From an uncultured Fimbriimonas sp. (lineage in GTDB: Bacteria > Armatimonadota > Fimbriimonadia > Fimbriimonadales > Fimbriimonadaceae), in assembly GCA_945952345.1 (NCBI GenBank), contig CAMFIS010000004.1, forward strand, positions 11,094-75,093: DNA of 64,000 nt, read 5' to 3'. The translations under genes and the position numbers were made by a program. Below, in pieces: positions 19,659 to 64,000 of this stretch; within the stretch, counting starts at the first letter, position 1, and each line of letters starts with the position of its first letter. The notes under the pieces were generated by a model, which had not been told where the DNA came from, made no database searches, and saw nothing but the letters and a program-made list of their open reading frames with translations.

Positions 19659-20036
19659 ATGGCGATTCGTATTGGAAGTCAGCAGTTGAAGATCATGCGG
19701 GTGTTGTGGCGCGATGGGGAAGCGACCGCCAAGCACATCACCGAGGAACTCTCGAAGAGCGAGCCGGTGGCGCACTCCACCATCCAGACCTTGCTGCGAA
19801 AGCTGCAGGCGAAAGGAGCGGTGACGCACGAGGGTCGAGAGCGGACGTTTTACTTCCGCGCGTTGGTGAGTGAGGACGAGATTGCTCAGACCGCGACGCA
19901 GGATTTGATCGGCAAGGTCTTTAACGGTTCCCTCTCGGGCCTGGTCGCGCATGTTCTGGAGAATGAGGACGTATCAGCAGCCGAGCTGAACGAGTTGAAG
20001 CGGTTGATCGACGAGAAATCGAAGGAGCTGAAATGA
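19659..20036 (+). CDS. BlaI/MecI/CopY-family transcriptional repressor
   Basis: 125 aa. It has a winged-helix N-terminus (QLKIMRVLWRDGEATAKHITEEL....HSTIQTLLRKLQAKGAV) and a C-terminal dimerisation helix. It overlaps the downstream M56 gene by 4 nt. Confidence 0.9.
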   Translation: MAIRIGSQQLKIMRVLWRDGEATAKHITEELSKSEPVAHSTIQTLLRKLQAKGAVTHEGRERTFYFRALVSEDEIAQTATQDLIGKVFNGSLSGLVAHVLENEDVSAAELNELKRLIDEKSKELK

Positions 20037-44007: not shown

Positions 44008-44092
44008 TGGGACAGCAAAACCGCTCGACGACTCGGTATCATCATTTTTCGTTTGCAGGCATCAGTTTTGCAAACCGTGACGACCGGCAAGG

Positions 44093-44905: not shown

Positions 44906-44913
44906 GGGTTTTT

Positions 44914-47900: not shown

Positions 47901-48117
47901 GATCACGGCATGTCAGCAAGCCTGTCCGAGCCAAGCCATCGTTTTTGGAAACCTCGCCGATAAGAACAGCCAAGTCGCCAAGATGAAGGCTGACCCAAGA
48001 AGCTACCAGCTACTGAAGGAACTTCAGACTCGGCCGCGAACTTCGCACATGGCAAAGCTTCGCAATCCAAACCCTGAGATCAAGAGTGCAAATGAGACCA
48101 CGGAGGCCCATTCCTAA
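44914..48117 (+). CDS. actB: Alternative Complex III subunit ActB (molybdopterin-oxidoreductase-like + 4Fe-4S ferredoxin domains, Tat signal)
   Basis: ATG at 44914 (the track ORF starts at TTG 44884, inside actA). It has a twin-Arg signal (DRRTLLKFAGASLALAGLSGC), a large MopB-like domain and FeS clusters (CTGCGACVTAC, CVHCEKAPCEPVCP, CVGTRYCSNNCP, CSYC...CQQACP). Confidence 0.88.
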   Translation: MDTQKMNKQEALDKMRAELEGKRGQQYWRSLDEVSQSKEFKSWFEDEFPNRQELFQIDRRTLLKFAGASLALAGLSGCRGVFLPEEKVIPFVKAPEEMVPGKALFYASAVTLAGYATGVLVEQHEGRPIKLEGNPDHPASLGSLGSIAQAEVLNFYDPDRAGNVYALDEISTWEEFNKELKSQLDAHVATKGKGIAVLFGTITSPTHAAMIEQFKKKYPEAKVYAWEPVGRTSLTAAVKAVTGKDGVPVYDFSKAKVVVTLDGDFLSPTETPGALIYARQFAQARKVTGSKGEMSRLYAIESNCGLVGASADHRYTVKPSEVYQSALALAKEVGLSVPGVNAPGRLQTDLPAIVKDLKAHMGESVVVASEQAPAEVQIAAFLINNALGNIGKTVKFVATPEASTGMGQIADLVKDMKSNAVDLIFISNCNPVYTAPADLAFGDALKSVKTKVHLASHFDETSALCDWKLPLAHSLEAWGDARSFEGTASIIQPLIAPIFDGRSEIEVMSNFLGENRGGYDLVRDYWKSQKLGGAEFEKGWRTAVHNGTIPNTASAPLAMTSTSASLPSPVASGSGLEASFMADPAIFDGRHANNGWLQELPRPLTKVVWDNVITLSAADAKNLGVKTDEYVRVSSGSAEIDGIVFVLPGQPVGSVTINLGYGRTAGGTLATIATVGNTPGDQGGGCNAYALRTSKNLNFTPVQIKSLGTEMHLASTQGHSPLGGNRMPDEPIHRDVIRAGTLEEFNKAGEEAEKSGDLVKKGEIYAEALSNGNHIVEDKEIAEGNLYPEETFEWDGDQWGMTIDMNACTGCGACVTACQAENNISVVGKEQVGKGREMHWIRIDRYYSGSDENPDVAWQPVACVHCEKAPCEPVCPVAATIHSHEGLNQMVYNRCVGTRYCSNNCPYKVRRFNYLNWTDNQEQFTKKTSPINTRVIPGPIREPKAEGVQLLKLLNNPDVTVRGRGVMEKCSYCVQRINEARIESKKAGRRIADGDVITACQQACPSQAIVFGNLADKNSQVAKMKADPRSYQLLKELQTRPRTSHMAKLRNPNPEIKSANETTEAHS

Positions 48118-49514
48118 TGGCTGATAGCCGAATTAACGATCTGCTGATTACCGGCGATCAGAACTACGCGACCATTGACCATTCGGTTGGCCGCCTGGTC
48201 CTTGACTCCAAGGCTCACTCGATTGCCTGGTTCAAGTGGCTGATCGTTGGCGTGATGGGATCTGGCCTGCTGATGGTAAGCATCGCATGGTTGATCTTCC
48301 AAGGCACTGGCACCTGGGGTAACAATATCCCGGCCGCGTGGGGCTTTGACATCGTCAACTTCGTTTGGTGGATTGGTATCGGCCACGCAGGAACGCTGAT
48401 CTCGGCGATCTTGCTCCTGCTTCGGCAGCAATGGAGAAACTCGATCAACCGCTTCTCCGAAGCGATGACGATCTTCGCGGTTATGTGCGCGGGCTTGTAC
48501 CCGCTCTTGCACACGGGACGACCCTGGAACGACTACTGGCTGTTCCCGTATCCAAACATTCTGGGTATGTGGCCGCAGTTCCGATCGCCGCTTCTGTGGG
48601 ACGTGTTTGCAGTTTCGACGTACTTCAGCGTTTCGCTCGTGTTCTGGTTCGTGGGTCTGGTACCTGACTTTGCCACCTTGCGAGACAAGGCGACCAACCG
48701 CTATGCCAAGCTCATTTTCGCTTTGCTTGCGATGGGATGGCGAGGCAGCGCCAAACACTGGCACCGATACGAGCAGATGTACTACATCCTGGCGGGCATC
48801 AGCGCTCCACTGGTTCTTTCGGTTCACAGTATCGTTAGCTTCGACTTTGCGATTTCGATCGTCCCTGGCTGGAACGTTACCGTCTTCCCACCGTACTTCG
48901 TTGCTGGCGCGGTCTTTGCTGGCTTTGCGATGGTTATCATTTGGGGCATCCCGCTGCGAAAGTACTACAAGCTGGAGCACCTGATCACCAATCGTCACAT
49001 GGACTGGATGGCGAAGATTCTCCTCGCAACCGGACTCATCGTTTTCTACGGCTACTTCTTGGAAGTGTTCTACTCCTGGTATAGCGGCAACTCGTACGAA
49101 TTCAAGCTTCTCATGAAGACGCGATTCGACGGAATGTATGCCAAGTTTTACTGGGCGCTGATCTTCTGTAACGGTCTCTGTCCGCAGATCTTCTGGTGGA
49201 ACAAAGCGCGAACCAGCACGTTCTGGCTCATCTTCGTCTCCATCATGGTCAGCATTGGCATGTGGCTCGAGCGATTCGTAATCATTCCGATGTCGCTGAC
49301 GAACAACTACTTGCCAAGTAGCGACAAGCCTTACTATCCATCGTTCTGGGACTTGGCGATGTTCGCAGGAACCCTGGGCTTCTTCACGATGCTCATGATC
49401 CTCTTCATCCGATTCCTACCAACGATCAACATCTTCGAAGTCAAGGACCTGTTGTTCAAGATGAAGGGCAAGAAAGAATTCGTCGAAGGCCAAGAGCCGG
49501 TGGAGGTTGCATAA
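48117..49514 (+). CDS. actC: Alternative Complex III subunit ActC (NrfD/PsrC-like quinol-interacting membrane subunit)
   Basis: 465 aa, polytopic and NrfD-like. TAATG overlap with actB. Confidence 0.85.
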   Translation: MADSRINDLLITGDQNYATIDHSVGRLVLDSKAHSIAWFKWLIVGVMGSGLLMVSIAWLIFQGTGTWGNNIPAAWGFDIVNFVWWIGIGHAGTLISAILLLLRQQWRNSINRFSEAMTIFAVMCAGLYPLLHTGRPWNDYWLFPYPNILGMWPQFRSPLLWDVFAVSTYFSVSLVFWFVGLVPDFATLRDKATNRYAKLIFALLAMGWRGSAKHWHRYEQMYYILAGISAPLVLSVHSIVSFDFAISIVPGWNVTVFPPYFVAGAVFAGFAMVIIWGIPLRKYYKLEHLITNRHMDWMAKILLATGLIVFYGYFLEVFYSWYSGNSYEFKLLMKTRFDGMYAKFYWALIFCNGLCPQIFWWNKARTSTFWLIFVSIMVSIGMWLERFVIIPMSLTNNYLPSSDKPYYPSFWDLAMFAGTLGFFTMLMILFIRFLPTINIFEVKDLLFKMKGKKEFVEGQEPVEVA

Positions 49515-50066
49515 ATGGCACACGATTATTCCGATCCAGTAGGTTTGTATGCGACGGTGGGTGAGTTCGCCACGCCGGAAATGTTGGAGCATGCTACCGA
49601 GGAAGCGCGCCACGCGGGTTACACCGTGATGGATGCTTACTCGCCGTTCCCGCTGCATGGTATGAGCGAAGCGTTGGGCTTCCGCGATACCAAGGTGCCG
49701 TGGACGGTCATCATCTTCGGCATCATCGGTTTGACCTGCGGCTACACGCTGCAGTTCTACACCTCGGTCATCGACTATCCGATGAACGTGGGCGGCAAGC
49801 CGCTGAACTCCATTCCGGCATTCATTCCGGTCACCTACGAATGTACGATTCTCTTCTCCGCGTTTAGCGCAGCGATCGGAATGTTCGTGTACAACCGGCT
49901 GCCGATGCCGTACCACCCGATCTTCAATGCCAAGAACTTCGAGCGGGCTTCGCAAGATCGATTCTTTTTGGCGATCGAAGCAAAGGACCCAAATTACGAC
50001 GGTGAAGCGATCGAGAAGCTGATGCGCAGCAATGGCGCGTTGGAGGTATCCACATGCGATTACTAA
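49515..50066 (+). CDS. actD: Alternative Complex III subunit ActD (DUF3341-type)
   Basis: 183 aa. It has a soluble N-terminal part (GLYATVGEFATPEMLEHATEEARHAGYTVMDAYSPFP) followed by two TM helices. Its position after actC matches ACIII operons. Confidence 0.8.
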   Translation: MAHDYSDPVGLYATVGEFATPEMLEHATEEARHAGYTVMDAYSPFPLHGMSEALGFRDTKVPWTVIIFGIIGLTCGYTLQFYTSVIDYPMNVGGKPLNSIPAFIPVTYECTILFSAFSAAIGMFVYNRLPMPYHPIFNAKNFERASQDRFFLAIEAKDPNYDGEAIEKLMRSNGALEVSTCDY

Positions 50067-50671
50067 GAACTCTCTTGCTAGGTTCGGTTGCCCTCTTTTT
50101 GGTGGGCTGCAACACCGACATGTGGGTGCAAAACAAGCAGGCACCGATGTCCGAAAGCGAGTTCTTCGCCGACGGATCTTCGATTCGTCCGCTCGTTCCC
50201 GGCACGATTCCTCGTGGCCATCTTCGAGAAGATGGTGCATTCTACACGGGCATCGTTGATGGCAAGTGGATCGATAAGATTCCGGTCCCGGTCACGAACG
50301 AACTCATGGCTCGCGGAAAGGATCGATTCGATGTCTACTGCACGCCTTGCCACGGACGTCTCGGCGACGGACAGGGAATGATCGCGCAGCGCGGATTCCA
50401 ATTGAAGCGACCGGTTGGCAACTACCACACGGATCGTCTCCGCAAGATGCCAGTCGGGCACTTTTACGATGTCATCACCAATGGCTACGGCGCCATGTAC
50501 AGCTATGCTTCCCGAATCGAACCTCAAGATCGATGGGCAGTGGTGGCGTATATCCGAGCGCTGCAGCTGAGCCAAAGCTCTTCGGTCAACGACTTGACGG
50601 AAGCAGAAAAGGCCAAGCTCAACGAAAAGATGGAACCTAAGAAAGAACACGCCGAAGGGGAGGGCCACTAA
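50054..50671 (+). CDS. actE: Alternative Complex III subunit ActE (monoheme cytochrome c lipoprotein)
   Basis: 205 aa with a lipobox (LFLVGC), a single CxxCH (CTPCHG) and a distal Met region (GYGAMYSY). Confidence 0.8.
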   Translation: MRLLRTLLLGSVALFLVGCNTDMWVQNKQAPMSESEFFADGSSIRPLVPGTIPRGHLREDGAFYTGIVDGKWIDKIPVPVTNELMARGKDRFDVYCTPCHGRLGDGQGMIAQRGFQLKRPVGNYHTDRLRKMPVGHFYDVITNGYGAMYSYASRIEPQDRWAVVAYIRALQLSQSSSVNDLTEAEKAKLNEKMEPKKEHAEGEGH

Positions 50672-51903
50672 TGAGCGCCGTTCTCAAGAACGACTCGATG
50701 ATGCAGGGCGATCCGACTCAGCCGAGCTTCCTTCGCCTCAAGCCATTGTTCCAACTTTTGGGAATCGTGGTCGGTCTTCCGGTCTGGGGTTACCTGGCAT
50801 TCGGAAGCGGCGAGGCTCACACGTGGGCGCTCAATAGCTACATGTACGGTTGGATTTTCTGGCTGATGGCGACCCTCGGGTGCCTCGCGCTGACCTTGCT
50901 CCACGGTTCGATCAACTGTATGTGGACGATTGCCGTGCTCCGAGTCTTTGAAGCAGGATCGAGCTGGGTGATGTTCGCCTTGTTGGCGTTCTTCTTCATC
51001 CCGATACGGCTGCACATGGGGGACGTTTATCCCTGGGTGAATGCAGACGCCAACGACATAGTTCTCAACTTTAAGCGCGCTTATTTGAACCAAAACGGAT
51101 TCGATCTTCGTTTCCTTGGTTCGATGGCGCTCATGGGATTCATGTCGTTCATGATGTCCCGATCCTCGCGACGACAAGACAAGTCTGGCAACGATAAGGA
51201 ACGACAATTCCGAACGAACTTCGGAACGCCAGGTATGGTCGCACTCGCGCTCATCATCACCTTCTTCCTTACCGACGTTGCGATGTCGATGACTCCTCAT
51301 TGGTACAGCACCATCTACCCGCTGTGGCTGATGGTTGGCGGCGCGCAGACGGCCCTGACGATCTCGATCATCATGGTCTGCAGCAATGCGAAGAAGCAGC
51401 CATATGCCGAGCAGATGTCGCCCGCTCTTACGAGGGACCTCGGCAACATGATGTTCGTGCTGACGATGCTGTGGGGTTACACCTCGGTTTCGCAGCTCAT
51501 CATTCTTTGGAATGGAAACCTGCCGGATACGGCCATCTTCTACGCAGTCCGCGGCGCCGACTTCAAGTTGGGCTGGAACTTTGTAGGAGCCGCTTCGGTG
51601 GTGGGTTGTTTCTTCATTCCATTCTCGAGTCTTCTTTCGACCCGGCTGAAGCGATATGCGGACCGAATTCGAAACGTCGCCTTGATCATCTTGGTGTTCC
51701 GATTCGTAGACGTGTACTGGATCATTGCTGCATCTTCGCCGCATCGCGAGCACAACTTTGCGGTTCCAACGATGTGGGACGTGATCGGTTTGGTCGCCAT
51801 GGGTCTGGCTTGGATGGGCGCAATGCTCACTCTGGTCGCAAAGCACCCACTTCTGCCGCAATATGACAACCGCTTGAAGGAGCTGAAATCGAATGCACAC
51901 TGA
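50671..51903 (+). CDS. actF: Alternative Complex III subunit ActF (second NrfD-like membrane subunit)
   Basis: 410 aa, polytopic. Its start overlaps the actE stop by 1 nt. Confidence 0.8.
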   Translation: MSAVLKNDSMMQGDPTQPSFLRLKPLFQLLGIVVGLPVWGYLAFGSGEAHTWALNSYMYGWIFWLMATLGCLALTLLHGSINCMWTIAVLRVFEAGSSWVMFALLAFFFIPIRLHMGDVYPWVNADANDIVLNFKRAYLNQNGFDLRFLGSMALMGFMSFMMSRSSRRQDKSGNDKERQFRTNFGTPGMVALALIITFFLTDVAMSMTPHWYSTIYPLWLMVGGAQTALTISIIMVCSNAKKQPYAEQMSPALTRDLGNMMFVLTMLWGYTSVSQLIILWNGNLPDTAIFYAVRGADFKLGWNFVGAASVVGCFFIPFSSLLSTRLKRYADRIRNVALIILVFRFVDVYWIIAASSPHREHNFAVPTMWDVIGLVAMGLAWMGAMLTLVAKHPLLPQYDNRLKELKSNAH

Positions 51904-52384
51904 GTTTAAACCAGAAGATCCAGAAGTCCTAAGGGAAATGGGTTATGACACCCGTGATATGAAGATGCCGCTTCTGCGGAAGTACATCATTTGGATTACG
52001 GCGTCATGCGTTGCGAGTTTCCTTATTGCAGTTCCGGCATATAACTACTTCTCGACAGACGGAAGCTTGCTGGCCCGCCTCACTGGGTCGGAGCGGCAAC
52101 CGGGGCAGAAGTCGAAAAACCATATTCAGCCTCCGAACCCACTTCTGCAGGACAACTTCACAACCAAGAAAGACATCAAGGACCTTCGACGTCATGAGGA
52201 TGACGTTCTTGGCTCCTATGGCTGGGTCGATCAGAACAAGGGTCAAGTCCATATTCCGATTGAAAAGGCTATGTCTGAAATCGTGAAGAACGGAGTTTCG
52301 ACCGGTAACGTCGTTCCCGCAAAGACTGAAGGCAATACGATCAAGCAGAACGCCGTTGGACCTGGCTCGAGCCAGCAACACTAA
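51893..52384 (+). CDS. single-pass membrane protein between ACIII and oxidase genes (possible accessory subunit)
   Basis: 163 aa with one TM helix (YIIWITASCVASFLIAVPAY). It overlaps the actF stop by 11 nt. No motif recognised. Confidence 0.55.
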   Translation: MHTEFKPEDPEVLREMGYDTRDMKMPLLRKYIIWITASCVASFLIAVPAYNYFSTDGSLLARLTGSERQPGQKSKNHIQPPNPLLQDNFTTKKDIKDLRRHEDDVLGSYGWVDQNKGQVHIPIEKAMSEIVKNGVSTGNVVPAKTEGNTIKQNAVGPGSSQQH

Positions 52385-52388
52385 GGAC

Positions 52389-53321
52389 ATGAGTAACAAG
52401 ACTGCCCCCATCTGGATTCCACTCGCCGTACTGGCGGTGGTGGTCGGGGCGCTTGTCACGATCCGATCTAGTAAGTCGAATGGAATCTGGAGTCAGAAGT
52501 ACGACCTGAAGCCTCAGCTCGGCGCGCAATTGCCCGTCGACGCTCAGCTTACAGAGTCCGATGGTTCGACTCACATGTTCGGCGAGTACTTCCGCTCGGG
52601 CCGACCAGTGATGCTCCTCCCGATTTTCTACGGCTGCAACGGAGTTTGCTATACCGAGACCGAGGCGTTGATCAAGACGCTGTTGGTCGAGACGGCCCTC
52701 AGTACGAAGAAGTCGGTGGACTCGGTGGTGCCAGGTCGGGATTTCGATCTCGTCGTGGTGAGCATTCATCCCAAGGAAACTCCGGCGCTGGCAAATGCCA
52801 AGCGAACCGAATTCCTGGATGCCTTCCACGCAGCTTGGAATAACCAAACGCCTCAGCGTCAGCAGGAACTGGGTGCTTACCTCGATAAAGGTGTTCACTT
52901 TACGGTTGGTAAGCCAGCCGAAGTTCAGAAGTTGACCGATGCCATGGGCTTTTACTACAGCTTCGACGAGAAGCGAAACTGGGTAAACCACCCTGCGGCC
53001 GCAGCGTTCCTTGCTCCGTCAGCAAAGATCGTGGCCTACAACACTGGTAGCGAGTTCCAGACGAAGAATCTGCGTAACAACGTCCACGAAGCCACCAAGG
53101 GCAAGGTTCAGCCCATCGGCGACGTCTTCCTCCTCGGTTGTTTCCGAATGGAGGCTGCCAGTCCGAGAACCCGATCCATCGTTTTCATTCTTAACTCTTG
53201 CGTCATCGCCACGTTCTTGGGAGCAATCTTCATGATCTGGCGATACAACAAGTCCTATCCCAGCAATACGCTTTTCTCAGGAAGTCCTAAGGACGAAGCC
53301 GGAGATCCTCATCAGTCATGA
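52389..53321 (+). CDS. SCO1/SenC-like thioredoxin-fold copper chaperone with N- and C-terminal TM helices
   Basis: ATG at 52389 (MSNKTAPIWIPLAVLAVVVGALV). It has a CxxxC motif (YGCNGVCY), SIHPKETP (compare SvDPerDtP) and a distal His (VNHPAAAAFLAPSAKIV). There is an extra C-terminal TM helix (IVFILNSCVIATFLGAIFMIW). Confidence 0.7.
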   Translation: MSNKTAPIWIPLAVLAVVVGALVTIRSSKSNGIWSQKYDLKPQLGAQLPVDAQLTESDGSTHMFGEYFRSGRPVMLLPIFYGCNGVCYTETEALIKTLLVETALSTKKSVDSVVPGRDFDLVVVSIHPKETPALANAKRTEFLDAFHAAWNNQTPQRQQELGAYLDKGVHFTVGKPAEVQKLTDAMGFYYSFDEKRNWVNHPAAAAFLAPSAKIVAYNTGSEFQTKNLRNNVHEATKGKVQPIGDVFLLGCFRMEAASPRTRSIVFILNSCVIATFLGAIFMIWRYNKSYPSNTLFSGSPKDEAGDPHQS

Positions 53322-54448
53322 ACTTTGCGAACTTTCCCTTCAATCCGCCAGCCGCATCGAACTTTGCGTCCGAAATGGACACACTGTTCTATTCGATCCT
53401 GATCTTGTCAGTGTTCTTTGCGGTGGTGACGTTCTTCTTCGTTCTGTACTTTGCTTTCAAGTACCGAGCGGGTTCTTCGGCGGATCGGTCTAGCCCCGTG
53501 TACGAGAACATGAAGATGGAAATCGTGTGGATTATCGTTCCGACGATCCTTGCGATTATCTTCTTCGTGTGGGGTGCCAAGGTTTATGCCGATACGCGAA
53601 TTCCCCCGAAGGACGCCAAAGAGATTTATGTGGTTGGCAAGCAGTGGATGTGGCATATTCAGCATCCGAATGGAGTGCGCGAGAACAATACGCTACACGT
53701 GCCGATCGACACCGATATCAAGCTGACGATGATCGCCCAGGATGTTATTCATGACTTCTACATCCCAGCGTTCCGAACTCAGTTCATGGTCGTCCCAGGT
53801 CGATACACCCAGATGTGGTTCCGACCGACGATGATCGGGAAGTATCACTTGTTCTGCAACATGTACTGCGGTGCACAGCACTCCGAAATGGGTGGCACCG
53901 TCATCGTCATGAGCAAGCGAGACTACGCTGAATGGCTCGCGAACAACGGTTCGACCCGCCAGAACCTCACGCCGGAGCAAGCTGGCGAGAAGCTGTTCAC
54001 CAAGATCGGATGCGGCAACTGCCACGGTCCGGCCGACTTGCCGCCGCGCGCTCCGTCGCTTCATGGCCTGTACAACCAGCCGCGAGAGATGGACAACGGC
54101 CAGAAGTTCTTGGCAGACGAGACCTACATTCGTGAATCGATCCTTCGCCCTTCCGAGAAGGTGCGCAAGGGATACATGAACACGATGCCGGTTTATGACA
54201 AACAGCTGAGCGAAGAAGAGATCATGTCCCTCATCGCTTACATCAAGGCAGGAGCAAACCCTGCTCTGCCGGCTGGAAATATCGCCGCCTCAGTCCCGGG
54301 TCATGAAGCCCAGGTTGATGGCAAGGCAGGACTGAATTCGAATGCGCTTGAGTTCAACGCTCAAAGCGCAGATGCAACACCCACACAACGCGGTCGCAGC
54401 CTCGCGGTTGGTGCAATGGCTGCAGAAAAGGTTGATCACAAACCATGA
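53318..54448 (+). CDS. ctaC: cytochrome c oxidase subunit II with fused C-terminal cytochrome c domain (caa3-type)
   Basis: 376 aa with two TM helices, CuA ligands (VIHDF...[13 protein letters not shown]) and a C-terminal CxxCH (CGNCHG). Confidence 0.92.
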
Positions 54449-56130
54449 GCACGACGGTAAAAACTCCAATTGGTAATGTCGAACCGGCCAAACCGAGGCT
54501 GAATTACCTGACCAATGGCCATTCGCTAAAGACTTGGCTCCTCACCGAGGATCACAAGAGAATTGCCATCCTGTACCTCATCTCTGTCAGCTTCTTCTTC
54601 TTGCTCGGTGGCTCGTTCGCGGGCATGATTCGATGGGAACTCATGTCGCCTGCTGGCAACGTGTTCGAATCGGATGCTTACAACCGCATCTTCACCGCTC
54701 ACGGCGCGATCATGGTCTTCCTGTTCTTGTTGGTTGCGGTGCCGGCGGTTTTGGGCAACTTCTGTTTGCCGTTGATGATTGGCGCGCGGGACCTTGCATT
54801 CCCAAGAATTAACCTTCTAAGTTGGTATCTCTATACTGCTGCGGGAACGTTAATCTTGATCTCGGTCGTCACCGGTGGTGTTGACGCGGGATGGACGTTC
54901 TATACGCCGTATTCGAGCCTCTATTCAAACAGTAACGTTTCGCTCTGTTTGGTCGGAGTTTTCATCGGTGGATTCAGCTCGATCACCACAGGCGTTAACT
55001 TCATCGCGACAACGCACCGCATGCGTGCTCCAGGCATGACTTGGTTCCGATTGCCGCTCTTTGTATGGGCGCAATACGCAACCGGCATTATCATGATGCT
55101 GGGGACCCCAGTTGTTGCCATTACGCTGCTCTGCGTCGTGTTCGAACGAACCTTCCAGTTGCCGATCTTCAGCCCTGAGCTCGGCGGCGACCCGGTTCTG
55201 TTCCAGCACATGTTCTGGTTCTATAGCCACCCGGCGGTGTACATCATGGTGCTTCCATCGTTCGGTGTCATCTCGGAAGTTATCACGGCCTTCTCTCGAA
55301 AGCGTGTGTTCGGCTACCACTTCATTGCCTTCAGCTCTCTGGCGATCGCGTTCCTTGGCTTCCTCGTTTGGGGCCACCACATGTTCGTCTCCAGTCAGTC
55401 GATGTACCAAGGCGTTGCGTTCTCACTGATGACGTTCTTGCTCGCGGTTCCGTCCGCCATCAAGATCTTCAACTGGACCGCGACGATGTGGAAGGGCAAC
55501 ATCCACCTCAACTCGCCAATGATCTACGCGATCGGCTTTATGGGTCTGTTCCTTATCGGTGGTCTAACGGGTCTGTTCTTGGCTTGTATGGGCACCGACG
55601 TTCACCTCACGGCGACGTACTTCATCGTGGCTCACTTCCACTATGTCATGGTGGGTGGTACGGTTATGGGCTTCCTCGCCGGTATCCACTTCTGGTGGCC
55701 GAAGATGACGGGCAAACTGTTCAACGACAACGTGGCGCGTTGGAACGCAATTGTCGTGTTCCTTGGCTTTAACCTAACCTTCTTCCCGCAATTCGTGGTG
55801 GGCTGGATGGGTATGCCGCGACGATATCACTACTACTACTTCGCGCCAGAATATCAAGCGTTCAACATTATGTCGACGCTGGGTGCTACGGTTCTCGGAA
55901 TTGGTTTTGTGGTCCCCGTTTGCTACCTAATCTCGTCGCTCTTCAAGGGTAAGCCAGCGGGCGATAATCCTTGGGGCGCTCATGGTCTTGAGTGGCAGAC
56001 AACGTCGCCTCCTCCGACTGAAAACTTCTATTACGATCCGATCGTCACCGACGACGTTTACGACTACGATCCGGTTGCTGAGCACGAGCAGTACCTGGAG
56101 CGACAACGACAACTAGGAGCACAAGCTTAA
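54445..56130 (+). CDS. ctaD: cytochrome c oxidase subunit I
   Basis: 561 aa with canonical heme-copper oxidase motifs ([29 protein letters not shown]). Confidence 0.97.
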
Positions 56131-56132
56131 GA

Positions 56133-56822
56133 ATGGCAGCACACACGGATAGTCCGGTCAAGTTCCAGTACCACGACATCGATCAGCAGAACGATACGTA
56201 CATCATCGGCATGTGGTCGTTCATGGTCACGGAGATCATGTTCTTTGGTGGTCTGTTCCTGATCTACTCGCTCTACCGCGGAAACTACCAAGCCGACTGG
56301 TATAAGGCGCACGAGCATCTGAGTTGGCAGTGGGGTGGTGTCAACACGGCGAACCTGCTCGTAAGCTCGATGTTCATGGCGCTTGCGGTTCGAGCGGCTC
56401 AACGAAAGGATCGAACTTCAGTTTTGGCCATTCTCCCGGTAGTCATAGGATGCGGTGCGCTCTTCATGGCGATCAAGTACTGGGAGTATTCAACCAAGAT
56501 TCAAGACCACTTGTACCCAGGTCCGAGCTTTACGACTGACCCAGCAATGGTGCACCACGCCAACCTCGACCATGCACAGCTGTTTTACGGTCTCTACTTC
56601 GGTATGACCGGTTTGCATGGTGTGCACGTTGTGGTGGGAATGCTTATCATCTCGGTGCTGTGGCTCAAATGGTATCAGCGAAAGAAAATCGTCACGGAGG
56701 ATTTCATTCCAACTGAACTGGTCGGTCTGTATTGGCACTTCGTGGACATCGTCTGGATCTTCCTGTATCCGCTGTTCTATCTCATGCCTCGACCGTATAA
56801 CTTGATCGAGGGAGGTCACTAA
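56133..56822 (+). CDS. ctaE: cytochrome c oxidase subunit III
   Basis: 229 aa with a subunit III-like polytopic pattern (GMWSFMVTEIMFFGGLF, YWHFVDIVWIFLY). Confidence 0.9.
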   Translation: MAAHTDSPVKFQYHDIDQQNDTYIIGMWSFMVTEIMFFGGLFLIYSLYRGNYQADWYKAHEHLSWQWGGVNTANLLVSSMFMALAVRAAQRKDRTSVLAILPVVIGCGALFMAIKYWEYSTKIQDHLYPGPSFTTDPAMVHHANLDHAQLFYGLYFGMTGLHGVHVVVGMLIISVLWLKWYQRKKIVTEDFIPTELVGLYWHFVDIVWIFLYPLFYLMPRPYNLIEGGH

Positions 56823-56824
56823 TC

Positions 56825-57295
56825 ATGGCAAAATCTCCACTTCACGCCGACGATCACGGGCATCACATTCACTCACGGGGGATGTATTGGACGACCGCTG
56901 GAGTCCTCGCTGCTTTCATGCTTCTCACGATTGGCGCGGCGCAAGTGAACATTGGCGACTATATCCATAACGCCAAACTTGGTTACTACGCCAACAACGG
57001 AATCGCATGGGTGATCGCGGGTATCAAAGCATACATCGTTGTCATGTACTTCATGCACCTCAAGTGGGCGTCGAGCACGGCTAAGATTTGGGCTCTGATG
57101 GGCTTCTTCTTCTTGCCGATTCTGTTCTCCGTCTACTGCGATTACTACACTCGATCGCATGAGGTGGTTGATGGGTGGATCCCGGGCCAACACGAGACTG
57201 CGTTGCCGCGGGTTATCGGCTCGAAGGACCAGGAAGAGCTGCCATCGAAGTATGCGAATGAGCAGAACCGTAATCCAAAGAGTAGCCTTTGGTAA
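56825..57295 (+). CDS. ctaF: cytochrome c oxidase subunit IV family protein (prokaryotic)
   Basis: 156 aa. It has a His-rich N-terminus followed by three TM helices (HGHHIHSRGMYWTTAGVLAAFMLLT...). It occupies the last position of the oxidase operon. Confidence 0.7.
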   Translation: MAKSPLHADDHGHHIHSRGMYWTTAGVLAAFMLLTIGAAQVNIGDYIHNAKLGYYANNGIAWVIAGIKAYIVVMYFMHLKWASSTAKIWALMGFFFLPILFSVYCDYYTRSHEVVDGWIPGQHETALPRVIGSKDQEELPSKYANEQNRNPKSSLW

Positions 57296-58649: not shown

Positions 58650-58789
58650 CAGTGAACTGTAAGCAGCGAGCAGCGAACAGGGTAAAGAATGAAGAAAGAA
58701 GGGAGAAGGGAGAAGTAAAAAATGAATAGCCAGCTCACGAGGAACTGGCTATTCTGATTTCTGATCTCTGCTTACTGTTCTCTGGTTAC
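58650..58789. repeat. inverted heptamer-phased arrays around a 10-bp hairpin
   Basis: 58650-58726 is eleven phased heptamers (CAGTGAA CTGTAAG CAGCGAG CAGCGAA CAGGGTA AAGAATG AAGAAAG AAGGGAG AAGGGAG AAGTAAA AAATGAA). The hairpin is GAATAGCCAG (58724-58733) / CTGGCTATTC (58745-58754). 58755-58789 is the opposite-orientation array (TGATTTC TGATCTC TGCTTAC TGTTCTC TGGTTAC). Confidence 0.85.
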
Positions 58790-60153
58790 TTGCTCGACTT
58801 TCCAGTGTCGAGGTTGACGAATGTACCCATCAGCGTCTTCTCGGCGGCACCCTTGTCGCCGCTTTGCAGCGCACGGAGAGCCATCGTGACTTCTTGCGCT
58901 TCGGCGGTGCGTCCTTCGTTGACCAGGAGCATCTGCGTCTTCTGCAGTTCTTGGATAGCACCCATCTGAGTGATGGCGCCCGTCTTGAGGCCCATAACCG
59001 TCTTCTCGATCGCTTTGCTCGAGGCAACGATCTGAGCGGCCTGAGAAACGCGAGGATTGACGGGAGACGAGTAGCGAGCCGAGTCGGACGAGAATTCCAT
59101 CTCGAAGTCGAGATCAAGCGTTACATGCTGACCCGTCATCAGGTCTTCGTAATTTAGCTTGCCACCCAAGACTCGGTAATGCCCGAGCGGGTGATTGGCG
59201 AATTCGAGATCGATGACTTGTTGGATCGTCGTACCGCGCTCCATATCGGCGAGACCCACCGTGACAGTTCCATCGGTCGCTTGCTGGGGTGATCGCATGG
59301 AGACCCAACGCGCCAGCTTAAGCTCGAGCGACATGTTGCGAGTGACCGTCGTCATCAGCTTTTCTAGCTCAGACCGGAAGATTTCGGGGATCATCTGCGG
59401 TTGAGGAATGAAGTAGTAGTTTCCGCCTGCCTTCTTTGCCATACCGGCGAGAAGTTCTTCATTGTAATCGGGACCAAATCCGAGGAATGTGACCGAGATA
59501 CCGCGGTTTCGTAGCTCGCCCGCGTGATTGACCAAGGCGGTGTAATCCTTGATTCCTGCCGTCGGGTCGCCGTCGGTCAAGACGATCATTCGTGTTGCCC
59601 GGTTAGATTCGATGAACTGCATCACTTGCTGCATTGCAAGCGAGATGCCGTCGTACAGGTTCGTGGTGTTGCCAGCCTGAAGTCGAGCGATGCCAGCCTT
59701 AACCATGTCTTTGTTCGTGAGCTGCTGGGGAGGCATCAGAACTTCAACCATCTCTTCGAAGGTGACGATGCTGAGAACGTCGGTAGGAAGGAGCAGGTCG
59801 ACCACGTGCGAACAGGCCTGCTTGACGTACTCAAGCGGTTGCCCTTCCATAGAACCTGATCGGTCGATGACGAGACAAAGATTCATCGGAGTTCGCCCAC
59901 CGCTGACGATGCCGCCAAAGGTTTCGCCTCCGCCACCAGCGCGAAGCTCGAGCAGGTACTGCTCGCGTGCTGGGCCGTTGGCCATGGTGCAGGTGCGTCC
60001 CGCGATGATCTCGACCTCGAGGGCTTTCATGGGCGCCATCACCGAGGTACGACCCATGTCGGTTGGGCTCATTGCCACGGTTCTTTGTCCACCCGCAGTT
60101 GGGGCGCTCGTCATAACGGTTTGGTTGATATCTACTCTTTGTGTAAGGTCCAT
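58786..60153 (-). CDS. cytoplasmic von Willebrand factor A (vWA) domain protein
   Basis: 455 aa with no signal peptide. The MIDAS motif is intact (LVIDRSGSMEG ... NTTNLYDG ... LTDGDPT). It has a Thr/Ser/Met-rich N-terminal ~60 aa and a C-terminal beta-rich plus helical region. Confidence 0.85.
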   Translation of the reverse strand: MDLTQRVDINQTVMTSAPTAGGQRTVAMSPTDMGRTSVMAPMKALEVEIIAGRTCTMANGPAREQYLLELRAGGGGETFGGIVSGGRTPMNLCLVIDRSGSMEGQPLEYVKQACSHVVDLLLPTDVLSIVTFEEMVEVLMPPQQLTNKDMVKAGIARLQAGNTTNLYDGISLAMQQVMQFIESNRATRMIVLTDGDPTAGIKDYTALVNHAGELRNRGISVTFLGFGPDYNEELLAGMAKKAGGNYYFIPQPQMIPEIFRSELEKLMTTVTRNMSLELKLARWVSMRSPQQATDGTVTVGLADMERGTTIQQVIDLEFANHPLGHYRVLGGKLNYEDLMTGQHVTLDLDFEMEFSSDSARYSSPVNPRVSQAAQIVASSKAIEKTVMGLKTGAITQMGAIQELQKTQMLLVNEGRTAEAQEVTMALRALQSGDKGAAEKTLMGTFVNLDTGKSSK

Positions 60154-60165
60154 GGTATTGCCCTA

Positions 60166-61680
60166 TTAAGATTCTATGCGAAAACTGGTGGCTCCAACTT
60201 TAACGATGTCGCCATTTTTTGCCATTGCAGTCGTGACTCGCTGGCCATTTACAAAAGTTCCGTTCGTGCTTCCCAGATCGGAGACATTCACGAACATGCC
60301 GGAGGGTTCAAGTCGAGCATGCCGACGGCTTGCGCTGGTGTCGTTGCTCATGGGAACCTGCATCGATTCTCGGCCGAGTTCAATCGGACCAGCAAGCGGG
60401 AATCGTTGCCCCATCAGAGGTCCGTCGATCGCGACGAGGGAGGCCATGCCGGTTTGGACGGCCATTGTTGGTTGAAGGTTTGGCTGGGCAGGAACCGCGA
60501 CGGTTGGCTGCATTCCAGGTTGGGATGGAACCATCATTGTTGGCTGCATGGCCGGATTCATCATCGTCGGCTGCATGGAGGGAACACCCATGACAGTAGG
60601 TTGCATTCCCGGCACGGGCTGCATGCCCATAACGGTCGGCTGCATTGGCTGCATGCCCGGCATTGGTTGCATCGGCTGCATTCCAGGCACAGGCTGCATT
60701 GGCGCGCCACCCGCGGGATATGCGGCCATACCGCGCAGGTTTTCCGGACCCCGGTTTGGCACTTTGGAGTTCTTCAAGAGAAAGCGCAGATTGAAACTGC
60801 CAATCTGGATCATATCGCCCCCGCTCAGCATCGCTTGCTGAACGCGCTGGCCGTTGACCATGAGACCTGCCGGAGCGCCACGATCGACGATCGTGTATTG
60901 CTGTCCATTCTTTTGGATGATCGCGTGCTCTTGACCAACGTTTTGATCACCAAAGAGAGGAATATCGGCTCGCTCTGATCGACCAATCATCATCAAGCCC
61001 TTGTCGATTGCCCACTCTTTTCCTTCGTTTCGTCCGAGCTCAAGGCGAATCCAGGCAGATCGGAAAAGGGCCTCGATGATGCCAATCATCAGGGCGATGG
61101 CACCGCATAGAATTGCTGCAAAGAGTCCACGCCCAAAAGTTCCGACCTCGGTTGCTTGGTTCGGTCCAACGTGTTGCAGTTGAAGCATGATGCCGCCCGT
61201 GATCGAGGAAACGGGATCAAACAGCATTCCTCCGATCGCACCTCCGATCAAGCCGCCGATCGCGCCTTGAACGCCACGGCGAAGAACGAAGGTACTAAAG
61301 CCAATTCCCGCGCCCATTCCCATTCCGAAGACTGTAAGGGCCACGACGCGCCCAACATAATGGGCAACGCCAATTGGACTATTGATCAACATCTGGATCG
61401 GGGCGAGCAGTCCCATTGCCATCGCCATCCCGATGATCGCGAACAGAATGGAAAGACCACCTTCCTTCAGTGCTTTGAGTTTGCTTCCGCGTTGATATCC
61501 GCTGAGGAAACCAACCGAACCGCCCAAGGCGATGGCCCAGCCCCAGTAAAGCTTTTGTTCGAAGGCCAACCATTCAAGGCTGTAGAAGTTGACGGTATGG
61601 GGCTTGAAGGGTTCGATGAGAGCCCACACGAGGACCCCCGCCAACATTCCCATGATTGCTTTGAAAAGGATGCTTCCCAT
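60166..61680 (-). CDS. polytopic membrane protein with two FHA domains separated by an MQP-repeat linker
   Basis: 504 aa with about six Gly-rich TM helices. FHA-1 covers residues ~222-300 (MMIGRSERADIPL...QEHAII...VNGQRV). The linker at 318-412 is rich in MQP/PGMQP. FHA-2 covers ~413-503 (ELGRES...SRRHARL...GSTNGTFVNGQRV). Confidence 0.85.
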   Translation of the reverse strand: MGSILFKAIMGMLAGVLVWALIEPFKPHTVNFYSLEWLAFEQKLYWGWAIALGGSVGFLSGYQRGSKLKALKEGGLSILFAIIGMAMAMGLLAPIQMLINSPIGVAHYVGRVVALTVFGMGMGAGIGFSTFVLRRGVQGAIGGLIGGAIGGMLFDPVSSITGGIMLQLQHVGPNQATEVGTFGRGLFAAILCGAIALMIGIIEALFRSAWIRLELGRNEGKEWAIDKGLMMIGRSERADIPLFGDQNVGQEHAIIQKNGQQYTIVDRGAPAGLMVNGQRVQQAMLSGGDMIQIGSFNLRFLLKNSKVPNRGPENLRGMAAYPAGGAPMQPVPGMQPMQPMPGMQPMQPTVMGMQPVPGMQPTVMGVPSMQPTMMNPAMQPTMMVPSQPGMQPTVAVPAQPNLQPTMAVQTGMASLVAIDGPLMGQRFPLAGPIELGRESMQVPMSNDTSASRRHARLEPSGMFVNVSDLGSTNGTFVNGQRVTTAMAKNGDIVKVGATSFRIES

Positions 61681-62942
61681 TAGCCCTCGTATCGATATTC
61701 AATGCTTCCGAATCGAACCTTGTCGCCAGGAGTGAGGGTTTGCGAACCCGCAACTTTCATCCCGTTTACCCAGGTTCCGTTGGTGCTGCCGTGATCTTGA
61801 ACTTCGACGCTTGTTCCCATTTTCAGTATGGTTGCGTGTTTTCTTGAGACCGTATCGTTCGGAACCACGAGCCCATTGCCAAATTCTCGTCCGACGACGG
61901 TTTCGCCGTCGGGCAGATCAAATGCACTACCATCGCTTGCGATGAGTTTCGGGATACCGGTCATAACCGGTGCGGCCGTGGAAGGCATCGAAATTGGACC
62001 AGCCGATGGGGATGCCACCGGTGATGGCGCTGCGCCGTCGAGAATGATCTGCTGCATTGGCTGGGGCGCGATAGGTGCGATCGGCACCGGATCCTGAGCT
62101 GCATTATCTTGGCCAGGCTGTGGAATGTCGGCACCCAGCTTGGTGAGGGTGTCCTTCACCTTGTCTGGATTCTTCATGACGAATTTCCACAGGAAGTACG
62201 CAACGCCGCCGATAAATGCCAAACCGAGAACCGTGCCCAGGAGATTCCCGGCAGGATTGGTTGAGCCGTCGCCCTGAGAAGTGTTGGCCGCTGGGGCGCC
62301 AGTTGCAGCCGCGGGGGCATTTCCTGCAGCCGTGGTGGCAGTTGCCTTCGCGGGAATAGCTTCGCCATCCGGGAGGGCGATTTTGAGTGTAGCGTCTTTG
62401 TCTCCGCCAACGGTAAAGCTCTGCTTGACCGGTTCCTTGTCCTTCCCATCTGCTTTGTAAGTGACCGCGACTTTAACCTCGCCGGGTTTCACAAACAAGA
62501 AAGCCGCTTCTCCGTTGGAGGAAGGGTCAATCAATTTGGTTCGCTTGCCGGATGCGTCATTGAATTCAACCGATGCGGCCGCGACCGGACCTTTGGGGGT
62601 CGAAACATCCACCTTCACCTTATAGACATTGGAGAACTCCTCCTTCGTGATCGTCCACGTATTGTTTTGGATGTCGCCAATCGCTTTGGTCGCAACCTTG
62701 CCCGACTGAACATCGACGACGTAAATATGATCCGCCTTGTTCGTCGAATCAACCGTATAATCGGCTTTCACAGCCTTAAATGTGGTCGACTTCGCCGGAT
62801 CCTCTTTGGGCCAGGTGGCCGACTCGAAAACGATCTTATCAGTTGCATCGGGAAACCCGAGCGTAACGGCGGTGCCAGCAAAAGCGGCGGACGACAGCAG
62901 TACAAATCCTAAAGCAGGAACCCTTCTCAACACTCTGAGCAC
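61680..62942 (-). CDS. single-pass membrane protein: extracytoplasmic beta-rich domain + cytoplasmic C-terminal FHA domain
   Basis: 420 aa with a signal peptide (VPALGFVLLSSAAFAG) and a CarboxypepD_reg-like beta segment (ASVEFNDASGKRTKLIDPSSNGEAAFLFVKPGEVKVAV). It has a low-complexity Ala/Thr spacer and a TM helix (LLGTVLGLAFIGGVAYFLWKFVM). The FHA domain is VVGREFGNGLVVPNDTVSRKHATI...GSTNGTWVNG. TAATG overlap with the next gene. Confidence 0.85.
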   Translation of the reverse strand: MLRVLRRVPALGFVLLSSAAFAGTAVTLGFPDATDKIVFESATWPKEDPAKSTTFKAVKADYTVDSTNKADHIYVVDVQSGKVATKAIGDIQNNTWTITKEEFSNVYKVKVDVSTPKGPVAAASVEFNDASGKRTKLIDPSSNGEAAFLFVKPGEVKVAVTYKADGKDKEPVKQSFTVGGDKDATLKIALPDGEAIPAKATATTAAGNAPAAATGAPAANTSQGDGSTNPAGNLLGTVLGLAFIGGVAYFLWKFVMKNPDKVKDTLTKLGADIPQPGQDNAAQDPVPIAPIAPQPMQQIILDGAAPSPVASPSAGPISMPSTAAPVMTGIPKLIASDGSAFDLPDGETVVGREFGNGLVVPNDTVSRKHATILKMGTSVEVQDHGSTNGTWVNGMKVAGSQTLTPGDKVRFGSIEYRYEG

Positions 62943-62978: not shown

Positions 62979-64000
62979 TTAACGTTCCATACACGCGGAA
63001 ACAATTCGCGATCTTGCGAATGGAAGCGCTTTCGCAACGTCCGAAGCACGATATCCAACCTGGCCGATTTCCTCGGCGCAGATGTCTGCGGCGGCTCCGT
63101 GCCAAAACATTCCGCAGCCTGCGGCATAGTATCCAGGAAGGTCTTGCCCCATTAGCGTAGCGATCACGCCCCCGAGCACGTCGCCCATCCCTGCACTGGC
63201 CTGGCCCGGGTTGCCCGTGCAGTTCACGAGCAACGGTTGGCCAGGCTCGCCCACGATACTATAGGGACCCTTGAGTAGGACGCAGTGCCCTAGTTCGTCC
63301 ACTGCAGACCGAATGGTGCGGAATCGGTCGCATTGAATCTCGGCGATGCTAGAGTGAAGGAGGCGACTCATCTCGCCGGGGTGAGGAGTCAGGACGCAGT
63401 CGGTCTGGGGAAGCTTTACGCCCATCGCGACACAGTTTAAGGCATCGGCATCCACAACGCACGGTAAATGCCACTGGCGGAAGAAGGCGTCCAGAAAGTC
63501 GCGCGAGGCTTCTTCCGTGCTCATTCCTGGGCCGACCAGCGTGGATTCAAATTTGTGTTCGAGGTCGACGAGTGTCTTGACCGCTGCAGGGCTAATAACT
63601 CCGTCGATTTCGGGCAAAGGCAGAAGGAGCGCTTCGGGCACGTGGCTTGCTACTGCGTCGCAGACGCTAGGCACGGACGCGACGGTAACCAGTCCTGCTC
63701 CAGAGGAAAGAGCCGACATGGCGGCGAGGACTGCCGCGCCGCGCATCCACTTGCTACCAGCGACGATGAGCACGTGGCCATTGTCGCCTTTGTGGCTGGA
63801 CTTTAGGCGTTCGGGGAGCAGACTGGCTACCCATTCCCCGTCGAGAACTCTTGCCTCGGAAGGCTCGGTGAGGAGAACCTGGGGGAAGCCAATCTCGGAT
63901 ACCGACCAGAAGCCGGCGTGCTCGAGGCCGATGCCTTGGAAAAGATAAGGCTTGGCCATACCGAAGGTGATTGTCCGTAGCGCCCAGATGCTTTCACCCA
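62979..64000 (-). CDS. nnr: bifunctional NAD(P)H-hydrate repair enzyme Nnr (dehydratase domain complete; epimerase domain runs off the window)
   Basis: YjeF_C-type carbohydrate-kinase fold motifs (HKGDNGHVLIVAGS, LTPHPGEM, TGNPGQASAGMGDVLGG). The reading frame stays open upstream of Met-63959 to the window edge (..TITFGMAKPYLF), which matches the linker of fused NnrE-NnrD proteins. Confidence 0.85.
   Translation of the reverse strand, partial: GESIWALRTITFGMAKPYLFQGIGLEHAGFWSVSEIGFPQVLLTEPSEARVLDGEWVASLLPERLKSSHKGDNGHVLIVAGSKWMRGAAVLAAMSALSSGAGLVTVASVPSVCDAVASHVPEALLLPLPEIDGVISPAAVKTLVDLEHKFESTLVGPGMSTEEASRDFLDAFFRQWHLPCVVDADALNCVAMGVKLPQTDCVLTPHPGEMSRLLHSSIAEIQCDRFRTIRSAVDELGHCVLLKGPYSIVGEPGQPLLVNCTGNPGQASAGMGDVLGGVIATLMGQDLPGYYAAGCGMFWHGAAADICAEEIGQVGYRASDVAKALPFARSRIVSACMER

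Follow-up and report, generated by a model that had tools for sequence, protein, structure and literature searches.

To our knowledge, the archaeal phospho-switch formed by the forkhead-associated (FHA) protein ArnA and the von Willebrand factor A (vWA) protein ArnB has so far been studied in Sulfolobus only. The pairing of an FHA with a vWA protein is the core of this switch (PMC6509490, PMC12852372). Here, we analyzed a 64,000-nucleotide stretch of contig CAMFIS010000004.1 (assembly GCA_945952345.1) from an uncultured Fimbriimonas sp. of the phylum Armatimonadota; this whole stretch is called the window. On its minus strand lie three genes, g1 (61680-62942, 420 aa, GTG start), g2 (60166-61680, 504 aa) and g3 (58786-60153, 455 aa), as called from open reading frames (ORFs), which follow nnr, the gene of an NAD(P)HX dehydratase/epimerase. 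g1 and g2 encode membrane proteins with FHA domains and g3 encodes a vWA protein. We consider it rather probable that this triad and nnr constitute the membrane-anchored half of a threonine-phosphorylation FHA-vWA switch, a bacterial counterpart of ArnA/ArnB. A preliminary description of the same DNA had proposed an envelope-associated phosphothreonine (pThr) unit. This proposal was reasonable, its domain calls are right, and the genes are co-conserved as an operon. The module is neither categorically new nor truly kinase-less.

The locus shares several traits with the system of Sulfolobus acidocaldarius (PDB 8s05, 5a8i, 5a8j). The FHA and vWA genes are adjacent. As in ArnB, g3 is modeled with a beta-sandwich interrupted by the vWA domain with its MIDAS (metal ion-dependent adhesion site), and a subsequent four-helix bundle that has conserved Thr residues. 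The wider family includes a partner that, like ArnA, combines a zinc finger or zinc ribbon with FHA, and the wider system has a Hanks kinase and a Ser/Thr phosphatase. The architecture of ArnB and its pThr-dependent binding to the ArnA FHA domain match features of g3 (PMC6509490, PMC12852372). Unlike ArnA/ArnB, the Armatimonadota module is bacterial, it has additional tandem-FHA architectures, and nnr is linked to the block. Furthermore, the FHA partners in the window are membrane-bound and without a zinc finger: neither g1 nor g2 contains a Cys4 motif, and a zinc ribbon-FHA gene next to the vWA gene is found in relatives but not in the window. Since the module includes no archaellum, its output must differ from that of ArnA/ArnB.

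Two further arrangements come close. TerY is a short vWA-only protein, and the TerY-P triad and related clusters of vWA, PP2C and Ser/Thr protein kinase (STPK) genes are reportedly the subject of Anantharaman et al. 2012. As in these clusters, a stand-alone vWA protein is coupled to PP2C and a Hanks kinase in relatives of our locus (classes B and C, see below). The clusters are described without an obligatory FHA partner, and g3 adds the ArnB-type sandwich and bundle. A kinase-PP2C-vWA theme has also been noted in actinobacteria (PMC7159879). In Deinococcus radiodurans, DRA0331-DRA0334 encode a vWA protein, an STPK, an FHA protein reported as FraH-like and a KI-FHA-PP2C protein (bioRxiv 10.64898/2026.01.23.701218). 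Compared by domain types, this operon unites vWA, Hanks kinase, FHA and PP2C as our wider family does. Unlike the window-type block, it shows a different gene order, a transmembrane (TM) kinase and an FHA domain fused to PP2C, and it has no TM-FHA proteins and no nnr. The triad had been put forward as uncharacterised. This holds for the TM-FHA variant, which is new, but not for the system as a whole, given the ArnB architecture of g3 and the resemblance to ArnA/ArnB and DRA0331-0334. TM-FHA receptors, a degenerate juxtamembrane FHA domain, nnr linkage and a D-P-N-R-T-Q-A-M code occur in none of ArnA/ArnB, DRA0331-0334, the vWA-PP2C-kinase themes and PpkA-Fha1. A search for literature on FHA proteins in Armatimonadetes found none.

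The g3 model has the architecture of ArnB

Hydropathy analysis revealed no TM segment in g3. The only Pfam family matched is VWA (E 1e-22), at residues 90-267 (59353-59886; all features of the module lie on the minus strand). The MIDAS residues D97/S99/S101, T163-T164 and D194-G195-D196 are invariant in 20 orthologues, so that the vWA protein with intact MIDAS that had been read from the sequence is borne out by profile match and conservation alike. In an AlphaFold2 (AF2) model with a pLDDT of 76, two N-terminal strands (residues 45-72) join a beta-sandwich whose C-terminal part spans residues 269-354 (59092-59349, from the secondary structure of the model; for the ArnB topology see PMC12852372), and the vWA domain is inserted between them. 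A C-terminal four-helix bundle follows at residues 367-450 (58804-59055; AF2 model, Foldseek). The chain begins with a disordered tail (residues 1-41, 60031-60153; pLDDT below 40) that contains three invariant Thr residues.

A Foldseek search with this model returned ArnB of the Sulfolobus ArnA-ArnB complex (8s05) as best match (E 6e-23, TM-scores 0.64/0.75, 419 aligned columns), followed by 4fx5, a vWA protein of Catenulispora, by the ArnB paralogue 5a8j and then by Sec23/24. Among PDB matches by sequence profile ArnB again ranks first (E 1e-12), the match lying within the vWA domain. We therefore describe g3, on the basis of its model, as a soluble ArnB-like vWA protein of Sec23/24-core-like architecture, and its four-helix bundle corresponds in structure to ArnB's regulatory helical bundle. 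The order of vWA "trunk", beta-sandwich and helical domain is that of the Sec23/Sec24 core of the COPII inner coat. Foldseek matches to Sec23/24 had E-values of 1e-12 to 1e-10, query-normalised TM-scores of about 0.45-0.50 and sequence identities of 10-15 %; a relationship of ArnB to Sec23/24 has been noted before (PMC12852372). Unlike Sec23/24, g3 has no zinc finger or gelsolin domain in the same chain and no Sar1 or GTPase partner, and its recruitment to the membrane would go through pThr-FHA binding.

g3 is conserved far better than g1 and g2. Compared with Fimbriimonas ginsengisoli, g3 shows 67 % identity and g2 44 %, and on shared contigs g3 identity reaches 93 % where g2 stands at 61-75 %. 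An exhaustive homologue search with g3 recovered 513 cluster representatives at E below 1e-30; many have lengths of 415-470 aa and include the vWA domain as well as the C-terminal region.

Two membrane proteins carry canonical and degenerate FHA domains

The product of g1 is bitopic. A signal-like N-terminal hydrophobic segment (residues 10-28, hydropathy) and a poorly conserved, beta-rich ectodomain precede a TM helix (residues 234-252, 62187-62243; Kyte-Doolittle score 1.93), which is followed by a linker rich in Pro and Gln and, at the C-terminus, by a canonical FHA domain (residues 348-412, 61707-61901; Pfam E 9e-16). Hydropathy and Pfam thus agree with the layout of signal-like segment, single TM helix and FHA domain given in the preliminary description. 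The profile searches proposed there confirmed FHA in g1 and g2 and VWA in g3, whereas CarboxypepD_reg on the g1 ectodomain remained below threshold (17.5 versus 32.3 bits). Within the otherwise variable cytoplasmic linker, the orthologue alignment revealed the motif Q-Q-I-I-L-D (residues 297-302, 62037-62054) with I299, L301 and D302 invariant, that is, an invariant I-x-L-D core within a conserved Q-K-I-x-L-D. The FHA pocket of g1 (G351-R352, S366-R367-x-H369, S386-T387-N388-G389) is invariant in 11 orthologues, and g1-type FHA domains are canonical in 31 of 33 sequences.

g2 is a polytopic membrane protein with a cytoplasmic FHA-linker-FHA tandem. Its glycine-rich helical membrane domain (residues 1-205, 61066-61680) matched no Pfam family and no solved fold, and Foldseek with the full g2 model retrieved FHA-domain matches only. 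About six TM helices had been counted in it, and AF2 indeed predicts six confident helices at residues 2-205 (pLDDT mostly 84-95, with 55-74 in three stretches); four of them pass a Kyte-Doolittle score of 1.5. Both FHA domains were found by Pfam (E 1e-27). FHA-1 (residues 209-302, 60775-61056, by alignment) begins immediately after the last membrane helix and is separated from FHA-2 (residues 413-503, 60172-60444; Pfam, alignment) by a disordered M/Q/P-rich linker (residues 309-410, 60451-60756; pLDDT below 50) with six Q-P-T-[VM]-[MA]-x repeats. FHA-2 is fully canonical, with the invariant pocket G436-R437, S451-R452-x-H454 and S471-T472-N473-G474, and its best fold matches in Foldseek are the FHA domains of GarA/OdhI.

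The triad had been credited with three pThr readers. This has to be reduced to two: g1-FHA and g2-FHA-2 combine the profile match with the pThr-contact residues (the Arg of GR, the Ser of SxxH and the Thr/Asn of S-T-N-G), whereas g2-FHA-1 matches the FHA profile (PF00498) without the pocket Ser and Asn. In FHA-1 the Arg is kept, but the Ser of SxxH is Gly in the window and mostly Ala family-wide, and the S-T-N position reads A-P-A in the window and typically S-P-hydrophobic across the family. The degeneration is family-wide, as the Ser is present in only 11 of 154 sequences. A canonical pocket is found in more than 90 % of sequences for g1-FHA, g2-FHA-2 and both FHA domains of the zinc ribbon (ZnR) partner described below. 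Since g2-FHA-1 is conserved, it is functional, although probably not as a standard pThr reader. The two canonical and the one atypical FHA domain of g1 and g2 face the same side of the membrane.

The layout of g2 recalls Rv1747 of Mycobacterium tuberculosis, a membrane protein in which a disordered linker of about 100 residues with Thr sites connects FHA-1 and FHA-2. Rv1747 itself is an ABC transporter; its FHA domains are N-terminal and both bind pThr. In contrast to Rv1747, g2 has its FHA pair behind a glycine-rich membrane domain that is not a transporter, and its FHA-1 is degenerate. The analogy suggests that an FHA-linker-FHA protein with Thr sites might engage in intra- or intermolecular pThr-FHA binding and clustering.

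A threonine motif recurs in three non-homologous segments

The tail of g3 varies among the 20 orthologues except for T12, T25 and T36, which are invariant. Each of these residues lies within a D-P-x-[RK]-T-x-x-M repeat, of which some orthologues have four copies. The full form of the motif, D-P-N-[RK]-T-Q-[AM]-[MI]-G, occurs in the tails of both the vWA and the ZnR-FHA proteins. Distant members keep the repeats, including loci in which the vWA gene stands alone (for example DPNRTQAI, DPSRTQAM and DPNRTQAV in L032). We analyzed the positions around 691 Thr residues in 158 non-redundant tails, with Ser-centered windows as control. D at -4 (45 % of Thr residues) and R/K at -1 (55 %) were each enriched 6-fold, Q at +1 4.5-fold and M at +3 3.3-fold, and further preferences were found for P at -3, N at -2, A at +2 and G at +4; these statistics are descriptive, because the sequences are phylogenetically related. 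The Ser-centered controls showed no such pattern.

The N-terminal tails of ZnR-FHA proteins share the motif of the g3 tail. Linkers between FHA domains, including the six repeats of g2 in the window, contain the related motif [NQ]-[PK]-T-[QVM]-[AMV]-hydrophobic, with enrichment of P/K at -1, Q/V/M at +1, A/M/V at +2 and hydrophobic residues at +3. A hydrophobic residue at +3 is a classical preference of FHA ligands. In addition, the bundle helices of g3 show a conserved [EQ]-[KR]-T-x-M at T385, T406 and T440. We regard the recurrence in three non-homologous segments as the strongest point that the motif has to offer, and T12, T25 and T36 of the g3 tail are predicted to be phospho-acceptor and FHA-docking sites.

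The window locus is best explained as part of a split gene cluster

Related loci were collected by a search of genome contigs with the single g2 protein, which gave 8 loci (L012 among them being spurious), and by a scan with a 7-sequence alignment, which gave 80 metagenome loci; contexts of distant members were added, and loci were classified by local searches. In 11 of 11 Armatimonadota loci the genes stand in the order nnr-g1-g2-g3, and one of these loci is that of the complete F. ginsengisoli genome. Among the 25 closest loci (g3 identity of at least about 54 %), an FHA gene lies directly upstream of g3 in 23 of the 24 that could be assessed, and g1 adjoins g2 in all assessable close relatives. 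The triad therefore passes the synteny check suggested for it, and like arnA and arnB its FHA and vWA genes are adjacent and co-conserved.

The loci fall into four classes. Window-like loci (class A; g3 bit score at least 524) have the order nnr-g1-g2-vWA, and in none of the 19 with at least 2 kb of sequence downstream did we find an FHA, PP2C or kinase gene there. Class B (22 more distant loci; bit score mostly about 340-415, up to about 470) has nnr and g1- and g2-like genes upstream of vWA, which a ZnR-FHA-FHA gene follows directly, along with PP2C and often a kinase; where enough downstream sequence was available, PP2C was present in 14 of 14 loci and an STPK in 9 of 14, identified by curated Pfam models as PP2C and Pkinase plus TPR. 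In class C (about 210-400), which comes from other lineages, nnr, g1 and g2 are missing, and vWA is accompanied by a ZnR-FHA protein, in some cases with a J-domain, by PP2C and by a kinase. Class D (about 405-590) consists of the vWA gene alone. A vWA-PP2C-STPK cluster is thus found in class B and C relatives but not at the window locus.

The cluster kinases are catalytically intact and share an activation-loop signature. Those of L040-L081 (e.g., L047 9350-11044) form one lineage of Pkinase with C-terminal TPR repeats, and their activation loop, EPS[IL]TxxGQ[IV]FGTPSYMSPE, can be used to find the cognate kinase where a genome has the cluster split. The ZnR-FHA partner shows the architecture of ArnA. 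We take the term FraH-like, applied to the Deinococcus FHA protein, to mean a zinc ribbon plus an FHA domain; a literature search on FraH, FHA and zinc found nothing useful. In several distant lineages the ZnR-FHA partner carries an N-terminal J-domain (DnaJ)-like region (L013 11673-12809; L014 11319-12395; L016 8999-9688; L051, L061, L068, L074, L078-L080), which hints at a link to the Hsp70 chaperone.

A metagenome-assembled genome labeled "Fimbriimonadia bacterium" contains the contiguous six-gene order nnr-g1-g2-vWA-ZnR-FHA-FHA-PP2C. ZnR-FHA-FHA orthologues with about 45-50 % identity occur widely among Fimbriimonadaceae and Fimbriimonas sp., and on two Fimbriimonadaceae-type contigs that we inspected the genes for ZnR-FHA-FHA and PP2C make up a two-gene operon of their own, with no vWA gene nearby. 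Because these two genes persist at a second locus in the clade, the kinase-less state of the window is best explained by the split of a larger cluster, and the enzymes of the system are not lost. "Kinase-less", the term used before, is therefore true of the window locus but not of the system, whose relatives carry PP2C and Pkinase-TPR. Nine loci (L032, L033, L036-L039, L042, L082 and L084) have a vWA gene with DPNRTQA[MIV] tail repeats and no FHA, PP2C or kinase gene within 6 kb; since such isolated vWA genes keep full tail repeats, the system tolerates complete gene dispersal.

Proposed switch and alternative explanations

In the proposed switch, a Hanks kinase encoded elsewhere, probably an orthologue of the Pkinase-TPR protein, would phosphorylate the repeated Thr motifs in the g3 tail, in the g2 linker and probably also in the helical bundle of g3. 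Canonical FHA domains of g1, of g2 and of the soluble ZnR-FHA-FHA protein would bind these pThr sites, with the g1/g2 domains either competing or cooperating with the soluble partner for sites on g3. Binding would capture g3 at the membrane, or release it from there, in a multivalent complex, and PP2C would reset the switch. The MIDAS site of g3 would engage a client, while the g1 ectodomain and the g2 membrane domain may provide an envelope-side input. As a speculation, the Asp-containing Q-K-I-x-L-D motif of g1 could be a MIDAS ligand for g3.

Several points weigh against a switch of this kind. The bundle of g3 has no sequence match to ArnB_C (IPR040929) or any other Pfam family, and searches with four isolated C-terminal bundles found no relevant match at E up to 10; g3 is therefore called ArnB-like by its architecture and not as a member of the sequence family. 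The predicted main phospho-sites lie in an N-terminal tail that ArnB lacks, whereas the mapped pThr sites of ArnB are in its helical bundle. The phosphatase of ArnB is PP2A, that of the Armatimonadota cluster PP2C. The vWA gene is found alone in one close relative (L084) and in several others, so that physical linkage is not obligatory, and the ZnR-FHA/PP2C operon and the kinase of the window organism are extrapolated from other contigs of the same clade. To this add the descriptive nature of the motif statistics. We infer the pairing of pThr with FHA, since its basis is motif conservation and analogy. The homology of g3 and the statements on the split cluster are considerably more secure than the mechanistic model.

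A different explanation would be a kinase-independent scaffold, a self-contained envelope unit held together by phosphorylation-free FHA contacts, in which the link to the enzymes was lost when the cluster split. Contacts of this type are known from YscD-type proteins of type III secretion systems (T3SS), and a weak phospho-independent contact between the ArnA zinc finger and ArnB has been described (PMC12852372). The degenerate pocket of g2-FHA-1 would fit such a scaffold, as would the lack of kinase and phosphatase genes within 8 kb at all of the closest loci. Nevertheless, we consider it unlikely, because two of the three FHA domains retain every pThr-contact residue without variation, the g3 tail has its three Thr residues invariant within a kinase-/FHA-like motif but varies elsewhere, and the clade keeps a ZnR-FHA-FHA/PP2C operon in which the ZnR-FHA-FHA tail bears the same motif. 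A slightly smaller chance is given to a cell-envelope growth or division regulator of the mycobacterial FhaA/FhaB(FipA) type, in which membrane-tethered FHA proteins would recruit peptidoglycan or division proteins phosphorylated by a PknB-like kinase and the vWA protein would be an accessory. FipA has a layout similar to the bitopic TM-linker-FHA arrangement of g1, FhaB/FipA is the top NCBIfam match of the FHA domains, and the single-copy genes sit beside housekeeping genes. However, scores for NF049868 (52 and 98.8 bits) stay below its cut-off of 125, and the pstP-rodA-pbpA-pknAB neighborhood is absent, with no ftsW, pbpA, pstP or pknAB near any locus examined. Furthermore, the cluster kinase carries TPR repeats instead of PASTA domains, and the invariant partner is an ArnB-like vWA protein that the mycobacterial system does not have.

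That the triad belongs to a secretion or pilus machine encoded elsewhere, be it a type VI secretion system (T6SS) with TagH/Fha1-PpkA-PppA or a YscD-like sorting platform of a T3SS, seems very improbable. The kinase PpkA acts with Fha1 and the PP2C phosphatase PppA in the H1-T6SS. In P. aeruginosa, PpkA bears a vWA domain (PMC1262709); ArnAB regulate a type-IV-pilus-like machine, and the FHA domains match Pfam Yop-YscD_cpl and, weakly, TIGR03354. Yet Yop-YscD_cpl is a model of FHA-like domains in general, the score for TIGR03354 falls far short of the cut-off (39.6 versus 120), and secretion or pilus machinery was found neither in the window nor in about 100 related loci. With scores under the family cut-offs and the characteristic neighborhoods absent, the earlier exclusion of the T6SS-Fha and mycobacterial fhaA-fhaB contexts stands. 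Finally, chance juxtaposition is already refuted by the synteny data, and together with a mobile anti-phage defence island it has practically no probability left: the gene order persists down to about 40 % identity across dozens of loci, there are overlapping start and stop codons, housekeeping genes lie on the flanks, the GC content is flat across the region, and a PADLOC scan of g1, g2 and g3 gave 0 matches. We therefore retain the ArnA/ArnB-like switch as the most probable account of the module.

Gene layout and remaining content of the window

Positions and lengths of the three co-directional genes are exactly those reported before, and the sequence likewise contains the TAATG overlap of the g1 stop and g2 start at 61680, the 12-nt gap between g2 and g3, and the 36-nt gap between nnr and g1. 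An intrinsic-terminator-like stem-loop with a 13-bp stem and a T-run, also seen previously, lies 3' of g3 (58724-58754, minus strand) and marks the end of the operon. The C-terminal part of nnr (62979-64000, minus strand; Carb_kinase E 1e-51) has a frame that is open to the end of the window, where the gene is truncated. nnr had been treated as a mere neighbor. Synteny corrects this: the block begins with nnr as a conserved gene that is probably co-transcribed with the others. With few exceptions, nnr of class A and class B loci lies directly upstream of g1, overlapping it or at most 40 nt away, and nnr-g1-g2-g3 is therefore probably one four-gene operon. nnr (YjeF_N plus Carb_kinase) is located just upstream of g1 in the window, L001-L011, L018-L081 and L099, often with an overlap, and the linkage holds in window-like and seven-gene forms alike. 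In a Capsulimonadaceae genome with a rearranged module, nnr is still found about 4 kb upstream.

In agreement with the preliminary description, Pfam scans of all large ORFs and a motif scan of the window detected no gene for a Hanks kinase, PP2C, MoxR or secretion. When all six frames were searched by phmmer with seeds for FHA, PP2C and kinase, only g1 and g2 were matched. A MoxR-type AAA+ gene next to the vWA gene was found neither in the window nor in the Pfam-labeled loci; in one distant locus an AAA+ gene lies about 2.5 kb upstream of the vWA gene without adjoining it. In several loci N_methyl prepilin-like genes lie nearby, and a link to them was rejected as their positions vary.

Homologues place the organism in the Fimbriimonadia group of the Armatimonadota. 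The remaining window genes are of the housekeeping type and include those for sigma-54, SerRS, SLH proteins, tricorn-like proteases, helicases, alternative complex III and cytochrome oxidase. The two tricorn-like proteases (16229-19321, plus strand; 36766-40020, minus strand) each combine PD40 beta-propeller repeats with Tricorn_C1, PDZ and Peptidase_S41. A BlaI/BlaR1-like pair of repressor and sensor-protease is encoded at 19659-22861 (plus strand); the BlaR1-like protein has an extra CarboxypepD_reg domain, the fold type for which the g1 ectodomain gives a weak indication. An MrfA-like helicase (DEAD/Helicase_C plus an MZB zinc-binding domain; 24354-26561, minus strand) adjoins tatC and a DAHP synthase gene. 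In a respiratory block (42061-57295, plus strand), a CtaA-CtaB fusion and a multihaem cytochrome are encoded together with subunits of alternative complex III, ActD among them, and of cytochrome c oxidase. This block is immediately upstream of the GH5 gene, the one that follows the module.

Significance

These data extend the ArnA/ArnB type of switch to a whole bacterial phylum. The membrane FHA receptors, the conserved degenerate FHA domain, the sharply defined Thr motif repeated in three proteins and the dedicated pair of Pkinase-TPR and PP2C have no described counterpart in ArnAB. The locus also holds a lesson of method, namely that an apparently "kinase-less" locus can be a fragment of a split operon. 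Motif and pocket residues provide precise targets for mutation, and the cultured F. ginsengisoli, which has the four-gene block, could serve to probe bacterial ArnB-like (Sec23/24-core-like) proteins.

A bolder idea, which we put forward as doubtful, is that the Sec23/24-core-like (ArnB-like) g3 is reversibly recruited to the cytoplasmic membrane by the TM FHA receptors through a multivalent D-P-N-R-pT-Q-A-M code. If true, this would be a membrane-adaptor or coat-like assembly of prokaryotes that is gated by phosphorylation, it would have implications for the way in which the COPII inner-coat core came to be recruited to membranes, and the recruitment system might sense an extracytoplasmic cue through the g1 ectodomain.

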